In this document: positions 7,489 to 13,944 of the stretch, piece by piece
How the letters are laid out: each line of letters starts with the position of its first letter
How positions within the stretch are numbered: position 1 is the stretch's first letter
DNA from: a virus
Taxonomy: Duplodnaviria > Heunggongvirae > Uroviricota > Caudoviricetes
Strand: one strand, 5' to 3'
Virus record (IMG/VR): IMGVR_UViG_2690316131_000006
DNA: 14,375 nucleotides
Notes under the pieces: generated by a model
The model's database searches: none
Told to the model about the DNA's origin: nothing
What the model saw: the letters and a program-made list of their open reading frames with translations, nothing else
Position numbers and translations under genes: made by a program

Positions 7489-7557
7489 GAGACCCGGCGA
7501 GGGAGAAATCCCTCGCCACCTCTGATGAATCAGGCATCCTCAACGCACCCGCACTTA

Positions 7558-7583
7558 ACCCGCTTCGGCGGGTTTTGTTTTTT
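7558..7583 (+). terminator. Intrinsic terminator of the hok transcript
   Basis: ACCCGC-ttcg-GCGGGT hairpin followed by TTTGTTTTTT. Confidence 0.7.
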
Positions 7584-10765: not shown

Positions 10766-11791
10766 ATGGTCAATACTGTAAAAATATCCAGTTGTGAATT
10801 AATCAACGCTGATTGCCTGGAATTTATCCAGACCTTACCGGAAAACTCTGTCGATCTGATAGTCACAGACCCGCCATACTTTAAAGTGAAGCCCGAAGGC
10901 TGGGATAACCAGTGGAAGGGCGACGATGATTACCTGAAATGGCTGGACCAGTGTCTGGCGCAGTTCTGGCGGTTACTGAAGCCTGCCGGAAGTCTTTACC
11001 TGTTCTGTGGTCATCGCCTGGCATCTGATATCGAAATCATGATGCGCGAACGCTTTAACGTGCTGAACCATATCATCTGGGCGAAGCCGTCCGGACGCTG
11101 GAACGGGTGCAGTAAGGAAAGCCTGCGGGCGTATTTTCCCGCCACAGAGCGTATTCTGTTTGCTGAACATTATCAGGGGCCATACCAGCCAAAAAATGGC
11201 GGCTATGCGGCAAAGGAGCGCGAGCTTAAACAGCATGTGATGTCTCCGCTGATTTCTTACTTTCGTGATGCGCGTGAATCACTGGGGATAACGTCGAAAC
11301 AGATAGCGGAAGCCACCGGAAAGAAAAACATGGTGTCGCACTGGTTTGGTGCCCGCCAGTGGCAGTTACCGAACGAGGATGATTACAGAAAACTGCAGGC
11401 GTTGTTTGCGCGTGTTGCAGCAGAAAAACATCAACGCGGGGAACTGGAAAAGCCACACCACCAGCTGGTCAGCACATACAGTGAACTTAACCGGCAATAT
11501 GCCAGCCTGCTGGAGGAGTACAAATCTTTGCGGCGTTATTTTTCTGTATCGGCTGCTGTTCCGTATACGGATGTCTGGATGTATAAGCCTGTACAGTATT
11601 ATCCGGGCAAACACCCCTGTGAAAAACCGGCAGATATGTTGCGTCAGATAATAGAGGCCAGCAGTCGTCCGGGTGATTTGGTTGCCGACTTTTTTATGGG
11701 GTCAGGTTCCACGATAAAAGCCGCGCTTTCGCTTGGTCGTCGGGCAATAGGCGTTGTGAGCTTGAGGCTGAACGGTTTGAGCAGACGGTGA
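10766..11791 (+). CDS. DNA methyltransferase, beta-class amino-methyltransferase (N6-adenine or N4-cytosine)
   Basis: N-terminal motif IV DLIVTDPPYF and C-terminal motif I DLVADFFMGSGST (order IV then I); 341 aa; no adjacent restriction endonuclease seen. Confidence 0.85.
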   Translation: MVNTVKISSCELINADCLEFIQTLPENSVDLIVTDPPYFKVKPEGWDNQWKGDDDYLKWLDQCLAQFWRLLKPAGSLYLFCGHRLASDIEIMMRERFNVLNHIIWAKPSGRWNGCSKESLRAYFPATERILFAEHYQGPYQPKNGGYAAKERELKQHVMSPLISYFRDARESLGITSKQIAEATGKKNMVSHWFGARQWQLPNEDDYRKLQALFARVAAEKHQRGELEKPHHQLVSTYSELNRQYASLLEEYKSLRRYFSVSAAVPYTDVWMYKPVQYYPGKHPCEKPADMLRQIIEASSRPGDLVADFFMGSGSTIKAALSLGRRAIGVVSLRLNGLSRR

Positions 11792-11938
11792 GCGAGATAA
11801 GAGAAATTCTGACGTGTAAAGCTGTTGATTGATTAATTAATGCTTATTTTTTCATAAGTCTTGTTGCAATATATAAGTATGGGGTGTAAAGTTGTTCTCG
11901 AAAATAATCATGTTTTCTCACGAATCAGAGGGGGGATA

Positions 11939-12199
11939 ATGATTGAGGTTCGATGGACAAGGACAGCCCTGAAGCAGTTACTTCGTGTGGATACGCGGTA
12001 TCGGCAGGCGATAAAGGATAAGGTCGGTGCGCTAAAGGATTTTCCTCTGGTAGCCATGGATTTTAAAAAGCTATCAGGGAGTGACAATCGATTCCGTTTG
12101 AGGGTCGGCGTGTACAGGGTTATTTTTGATGTTGAGGATGGTGATCCTGTTGTCCTGGATATTAAGGAAATTAAGCGCAGAAGCACAACCACATACTAA
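11939..12199 (+). CDS. RelE/ParE-superfamily type II toxin (HigB-like, toxin-first order)
   Basis: 86 aa; ...NRFRLRVGVYRVIFDVEDGDPVVLDIKEIKRR typical of the RelE/ParE fold; GAGGGGGG Shine-Dalgarno. Confidence 0.8.
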   Translation: MIEVRWTRTALKQLLRVDTRYRQAIKDKVGALKDFPLVAMDFKKLSGSDNRFRLRVGVYRVIFDVEDGDPVVLDIKEIKRRSTTTY

Positions 12200-12259
12200 G
12201 GGAGGCTGGCGGGAGACCGCCAGTTTGCTGAACGACATTCAATCGCGAAAGGCAATGAT

Positions 12260-12634
12260 ATGAAAAACAGTGTCCAGTTTATTACTGATAATGCCGGTGT
12301 TAGAACCGGGGTCATTATGTCAGTTGCTGAATATGAACGGCTGTTAAGTCTGGCAGATCCTGATGATGATTTTGAAAGCATCCAGTATGAAGCCGGAGAG
12401 AATGACAATGAAACAATACCTCATGAAGTAGTATCCATCATGATTGATGATGATGTGTCATTGTTGGCAGCATGGCGGATTTACAGGCGAATGACTCAAC
12501 AGGAAGTGGCGGAGCGCCTGGGGGTTAAACAGTCAGCCGTATCTCAGTTTGAGAGAGCAGGAGCTCCGCGAAAATCAACACTGGAAAAACTGGCTGAGAT
12601 TTACAACTGCCGACCAAATCAGTTGGCTGATTAA
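12260..12634 (+). CDS. HigA-like antitoxin with C-terminal XRE helix-turn-helix
   Basis: 124 aa; ...MTQQEVAERLGVKQSAVSQFERAGAPRKSTLEKLAEIY; directly downstream of the toxin. Confidence 0.8.
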   Translation: MKNSVQFITDNAGVRTGVIMSVAEYERLLSLADPDDDFESIQYEAGENDNETIPHEVVSIMIDDDVSLLAAWRIYRRMTQQEVAERLGVKQSAVSQFERAGAPRKSTLEKLAEIYNCRPNQLAD

Positions 12635-12779
12635 TCCTGAGTTTGGTTTTCGTAGCGATTGCATTTTTCTTATCTGCTTGCCGTTGTAGGTAGCGTGTAT
12701 TTGCATGTTGTTTTGTAGTTAACCTTATGGTTGGCTGAATTTTGTTCATCAATAAAAAATATCCCTCTCTGATCTTTAA

Positions 12780-12805
12780 GGTTCGCTTTGGCGGACCTTT
12801 TTTTT
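12780..12805 (+). terminator. Intrinsic terminator
   Basis: GGTTCGC-tttg-GCGGACC (one G·U pair) followed by eight T. Confidence 0.55.
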
Positions 12806-12941
12806 ATTTCCGCGCCACGCCCGGCGTACATCAAAAACCACAGAGCCTTTCAGGGGTGAGCTTACGGGATGGTCAGTGTGACTTTCTCTGTGGGCTGGTC
12901 ACCCCCGGGCGCAGGCTCACCCACTAAAAGGAAAAGTCACG

Positions 12942-13704: not shown

Positions 13705-13728
13705 GCCCCTCTCCGGAGGGGCTTTTTT
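13705..13728 (+). terminator. Intrinsic terminator
   Basis: Perfect GCCCCTC-tccg-GAGGGGC hairpin followed by six T. Confidence 0.65.
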
Positions 13729-13732
13729 ATGG

Positions 13733-13760
13733 GTAAAAAAATGCCCGAATGGGTTCGGGC
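13733..13760 (-). terminator. Convergent (minus-strand) terminator-like hairpin
   Basis: GCCCGAA-tggg-TTCGGGC, which on the minus strand is followed by TTTTTTT (13733..13739). Confidence 0.4.
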
Positions 13761-13944
13761 AATAGCATGAGATACTGATATTGTTGTGTTGTTATCGTGT
13801 GGATTTTAACCAGGGTTTATCAGGCTGCGCAACTGCGTGGCCTTTTTTCATTTCTTGGGCTGTAGTCCCCGTGTGTCATTCAGGCTTCCGGACTACAGCC
13901 CACTCCATATCTGATTTAATACACTATCCCGGCCGGGAGGAATA

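Follow-up and report, generated by a model that had tools for sequence, protein, structure and literature searches.

Between the two genes of a toxin-first toxin–antitoxin (TA) operon lies a GC-rich hairpin which is not a product of chance and is under selection, the decisive observation being that it is found at the same position in distant homologues. Analysis of the window, by which is meant the whole 14,375-nucleotide stretch of DNA under study, indicates that this hairpin probably limits the antitoxin message relative to the toxin message. The fuller account, namely that a toxin-first type II TA pair is carried as prophage cargo and that its stem-loop lowers the level of antitoxin RNA with respect to toxin RNA, is one to which we would give about an even chance of being right. 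The TA pair itself is ordinary and already annotated, its open reading frames being labelled in RefSeq as 'type II toxin-antitoxin system RelE family toxin' and 'helix-turn-helix domain-containing protein', respectively. It occupies a cargo slot between the Q antiterminator and the lysis genes in a lambdoid prophage late region, as seen in 11 of 5426 complete E. coli genomes, and the toxin protein occurs in identical form on 901 contigs. A search of a plasmid collection gave no match to the TA element, which is thus chromosomal or prophage-borne. The features of the operon are as follows.

11842..11859, no strand: candidate operator palindrome GCTTAT-TTTTTC-ATAAGT, directly 5' of the -35 element (sequence reading and homologues)
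11864..11892, plus strand: putative sigma-70 promoter, with -35 TTGCAA (11864-11869), a 17-nt spacer and -10 TAAAGT (11887-11892), predicted from homologue alignment
11928..11935, plus strand: toxin Shine-Dalgarno (SD) region GAGGGGGG, with a G-run of variable length (sequence comparison)
11939..12199, plus strand: RelE-family toxin gene, from ATG 11939 to TAA 12197-12199, 86 aa ending ...KRRSTTTY (PF05016 and PDB profile matches)
12203..12226, plus strand: RNA stem-loop, core CTGGCGG-GAGA-CCGCCAG (12206-12223) with a GNRA tetraloop (sequence and folding)
12234..12248, plus strand: second motif conserved in the gap, GACATTCAATCGCGA, forming in the predicted fold the 5' side of a weak hairpin (homologue gaps and fold)
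12248..12252, plus strand: antitoxin SD, AAAGG, 7 nt 5' of the ATG (sequence reading)
[quoted passage not shown]
12778..12809, plus strand: the operon's canonical intrinsic terminator, AAGGTTCGC-TTTG-GCGGACCTT then TTTTTTATTT (terminator scan, d-score +30.5)

The gap between the two genes is 60 nt long (12200-12259), and the hairpin begins 4 nt past the toxin stop codon. An earlier note on this DNA had placed CTGGCGG-GAGA-CCGCCAG followed by TTT within a 60-bp gap, and both sequence and coordinates prove to be exact (CTGGCGG 12206-12212, GAGA 12213-12216, CCGCCAG 12217-12223, TTT 12224-12226). In RNA, the stem grows to 10 bp, AGGCUGGCGG/CCGCCAGUUU, through an A-U and two G-U pairs, such that it spans 12203-12226. 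The folding energy of the gap is -22.4 kcal/mol, and for the 86 nt of 12190-12275 the z-score relative to shuffled sequences is -2.9. The hairpin pattern, with up to two mismatches allowed, is present once in the window, where chance would give 0.04; perfect GC-rich 7-bp hairpins appear about once per shuffled 14-kb window, from which some 0.004 would be expected in a given 60-nt gap. The single occurrence of the pattern in the window led to the rejection of a REP/ERIC-type repeat, and an Rfam scan of 11700-12900 (E <= 10) gave no match in the gap. The second gap motif recurs as GACAT..A.CGCGA in the gaps of Brenneria, Pantoea, Sodalis and E. coli-variant loci, and the weak hairpin to which it is predicted to contribute overlaps the antitoxin SD/AUG.

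Most of the 80 genome loci and 80 viral loci compared have the toxin gene first. Among the genome loci there are 50 distinct post-stop regions, of which 27 fold at <= -10 kcal/mol and 26 have z < -2. When both sets are taken together, 41 distinct hairpin cores are found among 85 distinct gap-bearing regions; in other words, stable GC hairpins are present at about half of the distinct homologous toxin-first loci, across at least 12 genera and numerous prophages. The stem starts 0-8 nt past the toxin stop in most of the members which have one, and at this same position the stems GGCGGG/CCCGCC, CTGGCGG/CCGCCAG, GAGGGGG/CCCCCTC, GGCAGGGC/GCCCTGCC, AGTGAGG/CCTCACT and AGTGGGGA/TTCCCACT are all seen. 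Tetraloops are of the GNRA type in 13 of 24 cases, compared to about 1 in 32 expected, and these loops cap at least five different stems in the sense strand only. The use of several stem sequences together with GNRA tetraloops points to selection on the sense-strand RNA.

MAFFT alignments of such short hairpins fall out of register where the stems are divergent, so pairing was counted from the loop outwards. In this gapless comparison of 23 tetraloop hairpins, counted in Python and uncorrected for phylogeny, the first six pairs are standard in every sequence as against 36-54% standard pairs when the partner strand is slid, a count which is partly circular since the hairpins were chosen by folding. 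Close E. coli variants differ in ways which leave the structure in place, one having a C to U change that gives a G-U pair (L095) and another a GAAA loop in place of GAGA (L101). A covariance model built from 19 hairpins (R1), when run against 513 kb of loci, finds matches nearly all of which lie at the toxin-stop position; at E <= 1 it does not recover the window's own hairpin, as the stem of the latter is one pair shorter at the top.

It could be argued from the same comparison that the hairpin is a dispensable relic of no regulatory consequence, such as an old terminator or a stable sequence that has simply been inherited. Roughly half of the family is without a hairpin, which means that it is dispensable, and it has decayed in Yersinia, Pantoea and some Photorhabdus; moreover, the R1 alignment contains no formal covariation in the common 6-bp core, as the sequence of this core is itself conserved. 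We nevertheless consider a relic quite unlikely, given that pairing is kept while loops and flanks diverge freely, that GNRA loops are enriched, and that independent stems and indel-compensated versions are found at the one site, the E. coli hairpin being an example in which one top pair is lost, bottom pairs are gained and the GNRA loop is kept.

A perfect inverted repeat next to a gene for an HTH antitoxin also invites the suggestion, made in the earlier note, that the palindrome is a DNA operator or a secondary binding site for the antitoxin, and the GGCGGG/CCCGCC arms are indeed conserved in sequence. The region of the promoter speaks against this. The putative promoter aligns position for position with the TTGACG/TTGACT-N17-TATAGT/TTATAA elements of the homologues, its absence from a consensus scan being due to its agreement at only 8 of 12 consensus positions. 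Directly 5' of it lies the candidate palindrome listed above, and a third repeat, TATAAGT (11872-11878), falls within the promoter spacer; an ACTTAT-N6-ATAAGT layout likewise adjoins -35 boxes of the TTGAC type in homologues from Salmonella, Xenorhabdus and E. coli variants. These AT-rich direct and inverted repeats, which are separate from the hairpin, lineage-specific and in the classic operator position, are candidate operators for the antitoxin, and because they fit this role the hairpin is unlikely to have it. The GC palindrome, furthermore, does not recur at the promoter, and the distance between its arms (loops of 3-9 nt across the family) is ill-suited to a dimeric DNA site. G-U pairs are tolerated in the stem, where they would be A-C mismatches in a cruciform or in the antisense strand: there are 12 such cells, and when the opposite strand is read the proportion paired drops from 91% to 86%. 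The enrichment of GNRA loops is strand-specific too, and the stems can be unrelated even though the antitoxin alignment shows a conserved HTH recognition region, KQSAVSQ. Taken with these features, the operator proposal becomes extremely improbable.

The best-supported of the roles proposed in the earlier note is attenuation of antitoxin transcription, and with it the setting of the toxin:antitoxin ratio, for which there is a precedent in HicA^T B (see below). What does not stand is a conventional terminator. A canonical intrinsic terminator has a GC-rich stem-loop followed directly by a U-rich tract of ~7-8 nt, whereas the gap hairpin is followed by only UUU, then GCU; it is not listed by a terminator consensus scan, and its d-score is a borderline +4.2 as compared to +30.5 for the operon's own terminator. 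Terminator-like hairpins in the window that are backed by T-runs have d-scores of +13 to +47. Across the family, TTT is found nearby or after the hairpin in 22 of 41 cases and TTTT in nine, d exceeds 0 in one of the 41, and the Salmonella prophage versions have no T-run. With a U-tract that is both weak and unconserved, the gap hairpin is no canonical terminator, and termination cannot be the universally conserved function; what is conserved is an RNA hairpin rather than a terminator as such. A terminator acting on the opposite strand was also considered and was rejected, as the minus strand is without a T-run.

The two proteins had been described as HigB/HigA-like, a description which holds for the toxin-first gene order and for the domain types, that is, a RelE/ParE-superfamily toxin and an HTH antitoxin, but which does not extend to kinship, the toxin being closest to canonical RelE and the HTH being generic. 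The toxin matches PF05016 over residues 4-77 (33.2 bits, cut-off 23, E = 8e-8), and its family profile finds in the PDB RelE3 (3bpq, 1.1e-8), aRelE (5.3e-6) and E. coli RelE (1.7e-5). The active-site residues of RelE are K52, K54, R61, R81 and Y87. In an alignment of toxin residues 6-86 with RelE 7-87, R53, R60, R80 and Y86 of the toxin correspond to K54, R61, R81 and Y87, while the counterpart of K52 (R51) varies with the alignment used; Y59, R60, R80 and R81 show no change among 21 homologues, and R53 and Y86 hardly any. RelE also ranks first in a Foldseek search with an AF2 model of the toxin (TM 0.43), to be taken as weak support in view of the mediocre model (pLDDT 77, from a shallow alignment of seven sequences). 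Searches of the PDB by phmmer and by profile gave no HigB chain at E <= 1, and neither by sequence profile nor by fold did any HigB or ParE chain attain significance; the sole chain from a HigBA complex in the Foldseek results is 6af4_C, a S. pneumoniae 'Toxin-Antitoxin module' at rank 8 (E = 0.04), a HigA antitoxin being named under 6af3/6af4 in the PDB search with the antitoxin. No NCBIfam model matches the toxin, and PADLOC has no defence-system model for it. By sequence, then, the toxin is RelE-like rather than HigB- or ParE-like, and it is predicted to be a ribosome-dependent mRNA endonuclease of the RelE type.

The antitoxin, for which 80 homologues were found, matches HTH_3 over residues 72-120 (E = 3.7e-12), with a weak RelB-like/Phd match at residues 5-30. 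Its AF2 model (pLDDT 84.5) places an N-terminal module (1-54) apart from the HTH (55-115). The module contains a β-β-α unit at about residues 5-32 which is predicted to be folded, and the acidic linker includes a conserved DDETIPHEVVSIM segment. The best Foldseek match is P22 c2 (TM 0.75 on target), and PADLOC returns generic HTH matches only; the HTH (~55-115) is of the generic Cro/cI type with no specific HigA kinship. The 86-aa protein is expected to be toxic and the 124-aa protein to neutralise it, the latter through its N-terminal part, while the C-terminal HTH would repress the operon at the AT-rich ACTTAT/ATAAGT repeats around the promoter.

Within this operon the stem-loop would act in the sense-strand RNA by setting the 3' end of toxin-only transcripts. 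Where the stem is followed by UUU, as in this version from E. coli, this may come about by leaky, non-canonical intrinsic termination; more generally, the stem would block 3'-to-5' exonucleolytic decay. By either route, antitoxin-coding RNA would be rarer than toxin-coding RNA. The cistrons appear to be uncoupled, with a 60-nt gap, an SD belonging to the antitoxin itself and translational coupling absent. The toxin SD has a run of 6 G in the window and of 7 G in E. coli E110019. A surplus of toxin mRNA looks hazardous to the host, unless it is offset by the rates of translation or by the stability of the proteins. If the hairpin does terminate transcription, then from its site 3' of Q it may be expected that Q-modified RNA polymerase would ignore it in lytic growth, with the consequence that the ratio of toxin RNA to antitoxin RNA would not be the same in lysogeny as in the lytic state.

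The position of the stem, starting 0-8 nt past the stop codon in most members, is also in line with a role on the antitoxin side, either as a 5'-proximal stabilising stem-loop or as a translational control element, or both, of an antitoxin message which would either start at a promoter within the 3' end of the toxin gene or be released when the bicistronic RNA is cleaved or processed. The second, weaker hairpin over the antitoxin SD/AUG is in keeping with this, as is the existence of solitary antitoxin genes which retain some of the gap and need a means of expression. Other toxin-first systems, among them Rts1 higBA, mqsRA and hicAB, have additional antitoxin promoters. A P2 of hicAB is mentioned in PMC11878559; in A. 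baumannii higBA2, on the other hand, the predicted higA promoter was undetected experimentally (PMC5906591). In the toxin 3' end and gap, inspection by eye and a consensus scan found no internal antitoxin promoter above 7/12, the best -35/-10 pair 5' of the hairpin being CATACT and TTAAGC with 7/12 consensus positions. The hairpin also lies 33 nt 5' of the antitoxin SD, which is thus left unoccluded. On balance, a function on the antitoxin side seems unlikely.

The closeness of stem and stop codon raises a further reading, which we hold to be decidedly unlikely, of a translation- or toxin-sensing switch instead of a passive terminator. RelE-type toxins cleave mRNA in the ribosomal A site with a preference for stop codons. 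If free toxin acted in this way on the stop codon of its own transcript (UA|A or UA|G), the product would be an antitoxin-only RNA with its 5' end 0-4 nt from a very stable GNRA-capped stem; in the Photorhabdus and Sodalis versions, pairing already starts at the G of UAG. The 5' stem could then shield the antitoxin RNA from 5'-end-dependent decay while the toxin cistron became a non-stop message, in effect a built-in negative feedback which would restore antitoxin. The converse may also be envisaged, in which a ribosome terminating on the toxin ORF melts the stem and permits read-through, thereby coupling antitoxin transcription to toxin translation.

The preferred reading, in which the hairpin lowers antitoxin RNA, has parallels in known systems. 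The REP stem-loops of malEFG are intercistronic and confer differential mRNA stability within an operon. Like them, the hairpin is a stable structure at the 3' end of the upstream cistron which would favour the upstream gene; unlike them, it contains no REP sequence, is specific to the RelE/HTH TA family and abuts a stop codon. As regards the proteins, E. coli RelBE contains the nearest toxin family by sequence, the full-length alignment ending at the catalytic tyrosine (Y86 versus Y87), but the gene order is reversed, the antitoxin has a Cro/cI HTH in place of a ribbon-helix-helix, and the antitoxin domain order is inverted. With HigBA of Rts1/Proteus vulgaris the pair shares the toxin-first order and an HTH-Xre antitoxin with promoter autoregulation (predicted here); the toxin differs in not being HigB-like by sequence or fold search. 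PvHigA is, according to PMC5416850, without a separate neutralising extension, whereas the present antitoxin has a ~55-aa module N-terminal to its HTH.

Vibrio cholerae HigBA2 (Hadzi et al., NAR 2017, PMC5416850) resembles the pair in its inverted order, in a toxin with a RelE-like active site and in an antitoxin with a C-terminal HTH, the N-terminal part of which antitoxin neutralises the toxin in VcHigBA2 and is predicted to do so here. The N-terminus of the present antitoxin is predicted to be a folded β-β-α unit with a linker, as against a fully disordered segment in VcHigBA2. PDB searches with the toxin and antitoxin found no sequence similarity to the VcHigB2/HigA2 chains, and the part of PMC5416850 consulted contains no description of an intercistronic hairpin.

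The closest parallel for the hairpin is HicA^T B of IncI2 mcr-1 plasmids (Lin et al., NAR 2025, PMC11878559). In 2018, the way in which the toxin:antitoxin ratio is set in toxin-first ('reverse') type II systems was called unknown (PMC5906591), and the non-canonical internal terminator of HicA^T B is the sole experimental answer that we found; literature searches returned no paper on this specific RelE/HTH TA family. In HicA^T B, an intergenic GC hairpin with UUU just 5' of the antitoxin RBS makes hicB mRNA ~10-fold lower, and deletion of the hairpin equalises both mRNAs (PMC11878559). The same arrangement, in which the toxin gene comes first and a GC-rich hairpin with a U tract of 3 nt lies 5' of the antitoxin RBS, is found here at 12203-12226 with the SD at 12248-12252, and a canonical terminator follows the operon here as there. 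A sister subfamily of HicA^T B which is without the hairpin has overlapping ORFs (PMC11878559), and in the RelE/HTH family, too, hairpin-less relatives have overlapping or short-gap ORFs. The two systems are otherwise distinct: RelE and N-module-HTH proteins rather than HicA/HicB, a gap of 60 nt rather than 24 nt, a prophage late region rather than a conjugative plasmid, and, in the RelE/HTH family, many hairpins without any U tract. As the hairpin design has already been demonstrated experimentally in an unrelated toxin-first system, the present case adds a further instance to a principle that was known before. That the same solution occurs in an unrelated toxin-first family does, however, suggest a general design rule and no plasmid-specific oddity, and the RelE/HTH family offers natural variants with which the mechanisms could be separated, namely hairpins with a U tract, hairpins without one, decayed hairpins and overlapping ORFs.

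The toxin-antitoxin (TA) gene pair is itself ordinary and already annotated, and it is located in the cargo slot of a lambdoid late operon. The coordinates that the earlier note gave for the pair and for its intergenic hairpin proved exact when checked against the sequence. The elements of the locus are as follows.

11842-11859: repeat, GCTTAT-N6-ATAAGT
11864-11869: putative -35, TTGCAA
11872-11878: repeat, TATAAGT, within the 17-nt spacer
11887-11892: putative -10, TAAAGT
11939-12199, + strand: toxin ORF, ATG to TAA, 86 aa
12206-12223: gap hairpin core, CTGGCGG-GAGA-CCGCCAG, then TTT, within the 60-nt gap between the ORFs
12260-12634, + strand: antitoxin ORF, ATG to TAA, 124 aa

A longer, TTG-started toxin ORF in the ORF listing was rejected, as neither homologues nor RefSeq support it. 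Of 5426 complete E. coli genomes, 9 carry the 901-nt TA region at 99.8-99.9% identity and 2 more at about 95%, all copies being chromosomal; a search of the plasmid collection returned no match. The region is also found in Enterobacteria phage PPyecE_EH1910, where, as in E. coli E110019, the gene order is antitermination protein Q, a small ORF, DNA methyltransferase, RelE-family toxin and HTH protein, then TerB-family protein, DUF3927 protein, SASA/9-O-acetyl esterase, holin and endolysin. A Phage_antiter_Q gene immediately precedes the pair in the Salmonella homologues (toxin 77% identical) and in a more divergent E. coli homologue (85%), and in those Salmonella loci whose downstream sequence is covered holin genes come after the pair. 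The DNA methyltransferase ORF (10766-11791) carries a 2-nt insertion relative to E110019 (TG, 11755-11756), which frameshifts its 3′ end. The window ORF thus codes for 341 aa, with its stop at 11791, against 354 aa for the E110019 CDS, whose end would fall near 11833; either a sequencing error or a pseudogenising mutation may account for the difference.

In its sequence features the toxin appears to be of RelE type, and would be expected to be toxic. This classification is made because it matches PF05016 (33.2 bits, cut-off 23), because a profile of 21 family members retrieves M. jannaschii RelE3 (1.1e-8), P. horikoshii aRelE (5.3e-6) and E. coli RelE (1.7e-5, residues 6-86 against 7-87) from the PDB, because R53, R60, R80 and the C-terminal Y86 align with RelE K54, R61, R81 and Y87, and because the best Foldseek matches of its moderate AF2 model (pLDDT 77) are RelE proteins, with poor superposition. 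The family alignment shows no variation at Y59, R60, R80 and R81 and almost none at R53 and Y86. No HigB or ParE chain was significant among the PDB matches of the profile. The Pfam match thus bears out the proposed RelE/ParE-type toxin; of the proposed HigB/HigA likeness, the gene order stands and the toxin identity does not. Several loci carry altered toxin genes: in Yersinia pestis NCTC5923 (L060) the toxin ORF is broken in its upstream portion by tandem expansion of the 8-nt unit GCAGTTAA, another Y. pestis copy (L061) being intact; in Enterobacillus tribolii (L032) one ORF fuses toxin and antitoxin; and in an Enterobacter clade (L074, L079-L083) the toxin extends about 18 aa past the catalytic Tyr, overlapping the antitoxin start.

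The antitoxin was likewise rightly described as an HTH protein: its HTH_3 domain is C-terminal (residues 72-120, E = 3.7e-12), and residues 5-30 give weak RelB-like/Phd signals. Its AF2 model (pLDDT 84.5) has β6-9, β15-19 and α22-32, followed by a lower-confidence acidic linker and a five-helix Cro/cI-type domain which, in a structure search, superposes on P22 c2 and 434 Cro; the segment DDETIPHEVVSIM, N-terminal of the HTH, is highly conserved in the alignment. V. cholerae HigBA2 is described as having an antitoxin with an N-terminal neutralising part and a C-terminal HTH, a RelE-like toxin and inverted gene order (PMC5416850). The window pair has the same gene order and a RelE-like toxin, and its antitoxin would agree in domain order, with a presumed neutralising part N-terminal of the HTH; no sequence similarity of its proteins to the HigBA2 chains was found. 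Solitary antitoxin homologues occur at L005, L007, L009, L010, L012, L014, L019 and L047. In X. innexi L047 a deletion between CGGAT repeats has apparently brought the promoter and 5′ UTR right up to the antitoxin start, and Photorhabdus L009 and L010 retain the distal half of the gap alone. In the window a mini-ORF of two codons (ATG ATA TGA, 12255-12263), covered by a weak predicted hairpin, overlaps the antitoxin ATG (12260) in an ATGA configuration.

When upstream regions are aligned across the family, a -35 of TTGAC type and a TATAAT-like -10 can be recognised, and around and among these boxes lie lineage-specific 7-8-bp repeats: ATATAAGT/ACTTAT in E. coli, Salmonella and Xenorhabdus, ATTAGAT in Brenneria, Pantoea and Sodalis, ATACGAT in Photorhabdus, and TATAGGG in Kosakonia and Dryocola. 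Judged by sequence and position, these repeats would be the natural candidates for HTH operators. They are AT-rich and unrelated to the GC-rich gap palindrome; the DNA operator role that the earlier note entertained for the latter is highly improbable. Three further features lie here. A 22-nt direct repeat (77% identical, 11805-11826 and 11875-11896, copies 70 nt apart; ..GTGTAAAGCTGTT / ..GTGTAAAGTTGTT) has one copy within the 3′ end of the methyltransferase and a second overlapping the putative -10; a G-run in the toxin Shine-Dalgarno region (11929-11935; 6 G in the window, 7 in E110019) could be a slippage-prone site tuning toxin translation; and a conserved 5′-UTR element, CATCC(C/T)RARCGGATATGCTCTTTAA, lies between the -10 and toxin SD in Photorhabdus, Xenorhabdus, Sodalis, Brenneria and Yersinia loci (e.g. 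L030, 2630-2676) and is absent from the E. coli window.

As RNA, the gap hairpin forms a 10-bp stem (12203-12226), through one added A-U and two G-U pairs, closed by a GNRA tetraloop, GAGA. The gap folds at -22.4 kcal/mol (z = -2.9 for the surrounding 86 nt), and the hairpin pattern is present a single time in the window (0.04 expected). Perfect GC-rich 7-bp hairpins number 12 in the window and about one per shuffled window; others include 7496-7517, 7557-7574, 13705-13722 and 13742-13761, of which 7557-7574 (d = +13.6) and 13705-13722 (d = +47) are terminator-like with a T-run, others having none.

The hairpin is conserved in the RelE/HTH family. The antitoxin homologues compared came from 80 genome loci, each species being represented by one genome, and from 80 viral contigs; toxin-first order is the rule among them. 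Where genome loci have a gap no shorter than about 25-30 nt, a fold of -10 kcal/mol or better is obtained for 27 of the 50 distinct regions that follow the toxin stop, and z is below -2 for 26 of the 50; both sets together give 41 distinct cores in 85 distinct regions. The commonest, GGCGGG-loop-CCCGCC, occurs in Photorhabdus, Xenorhabdus, Sodalis, Brenneria, Buttiauxella, Kosakonia, Salmonella prophages and others, and its position is taken elsewhere by CTGGCGG/CCGCCAG (E. coli), GAGGGGG/CCCCCTC (Serratia-like), GGCAGGGC/GCCCTGCC, AGTGAGG/CCTCACT or AGTGGGGA/TTCCCACT. Close E. coli variants show a C-to-U change giving a G-U pair (L095), a GAAA loop for GAGA (L101), and a GATA loop on a 12-bp stem with U4 (L087). 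A covariance model run against 513 kb of sequence matched almost only at the toxin-stop position. Yersinia, Pantoea and some Photorhabdus loci have a decayed hairpin, and there is none where the ORFs overlap or stand 8-12 nt apart. That the hairpin is a dispensable relic is quite unlikely. Nearly all 41 cores start 0-8 nt past the toxin stop codon. A switch linked to that codon, in which RelE would cut its own stop codon to leave hairpin-capped antitoxin RNA, or ribosomes ending translation there would open the stem and so tie transcription of the antitoxin to translation of the toxin, is improbable.

The signals point to a sense-strand RNA element. Thirteen of 24 tetraloops are GNRA (GAGA, GAAA, GTAA, GCAA, GGAA), spread over five or more different stems, loops across the family ranging from 3 to 9 nt, and G-U pairs are tolerated (12 cells), with pairing of 91% on the sense strand against 86% on the other. 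In 23 loop-anchored tetraloop hairpins, a set selected by folding and counted without regard to phylogeny, the six loop-nearest pairs are standard throughout, each position showing 2-6 pair types, and pairing drops to 36-54% on sliding the partner. A formal covariation test on the model-fitted alignment found none in the conserved 6-bp core.

This RNA element is not a canonical terminator. UUU alone lies 3′ of the window stem, and a consensus terminator scan of the window lists the operon terminator with its T-run (12778-12799) and not the gap hairpin. By a d'Aubenton-Carafa-type score (d) the gap hairpin reaches +4.2, against +30.5 for the operon terminator and +13 to +47 for the other T-run hairpins of the window. 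Across the 41 hairpins TTT is nearby in 22, TTTT in 9 and d > 0 in one only, the Salmonella prophage hairpins lacking any T-run. Because U-tracts are so patchy, it is the stem-loop that is the conserved feature, with a short U-run in about half, the window included.

A reading with about an even chance of being correct is that the stem-loop creates or protects toxin-only 3′ ends, such that antitoxin-coding RNA would fall relative to toxin-coding RNA. The route may be leaky, non-canonical termination where U's come next, as in the window, and/or a barrier to 3′-exonucleases. That the hairpin acts instead as a 5′ stabiliser or translation element of an antitoxin message is unlikely. The toxin-only 3′ end model is proposed because the closest experimentally characterised case, HicA^T B of IncI2 plasmids, has a hairpin of the same anatomy and its family divides in the same way. 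In that system hicA mRNA is about 10-fold above hicB mRNA, and a 13-bp deletion of the hairpin makes both equal, raises HicB and lowers toxicity and plasmid competition, while in a sister subfamily the ORFs overlap and there is no hairpin (PMC11878559). A hicAB pair adjoins the RelE/HTH pair in the same prophage slot at L089 and L087 (1965-2544). At L089 (4299-4340, minus strand) the hicA stop codon lies within the loop of GGCGGGGAT-CTA-ATCCCCGCC, just 5′ of the hicB GGAGG RBS; this hairpin looks like the published one, and its GC core is nearly identical to that of the RelE/HTH family. As far as literature searches show, the RelE/HTH hairpin, real and conserved, is previously undescribed, the principle in toxin-first operons having been published for HicAB in 2025 (PMC11878559). 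The family, with its natural variants with and without U tracts, offers a means of separating the mechanisms, and its hairpin carries the HicAB design over to prophages and to a second toxin-first family, unrelated to the first.
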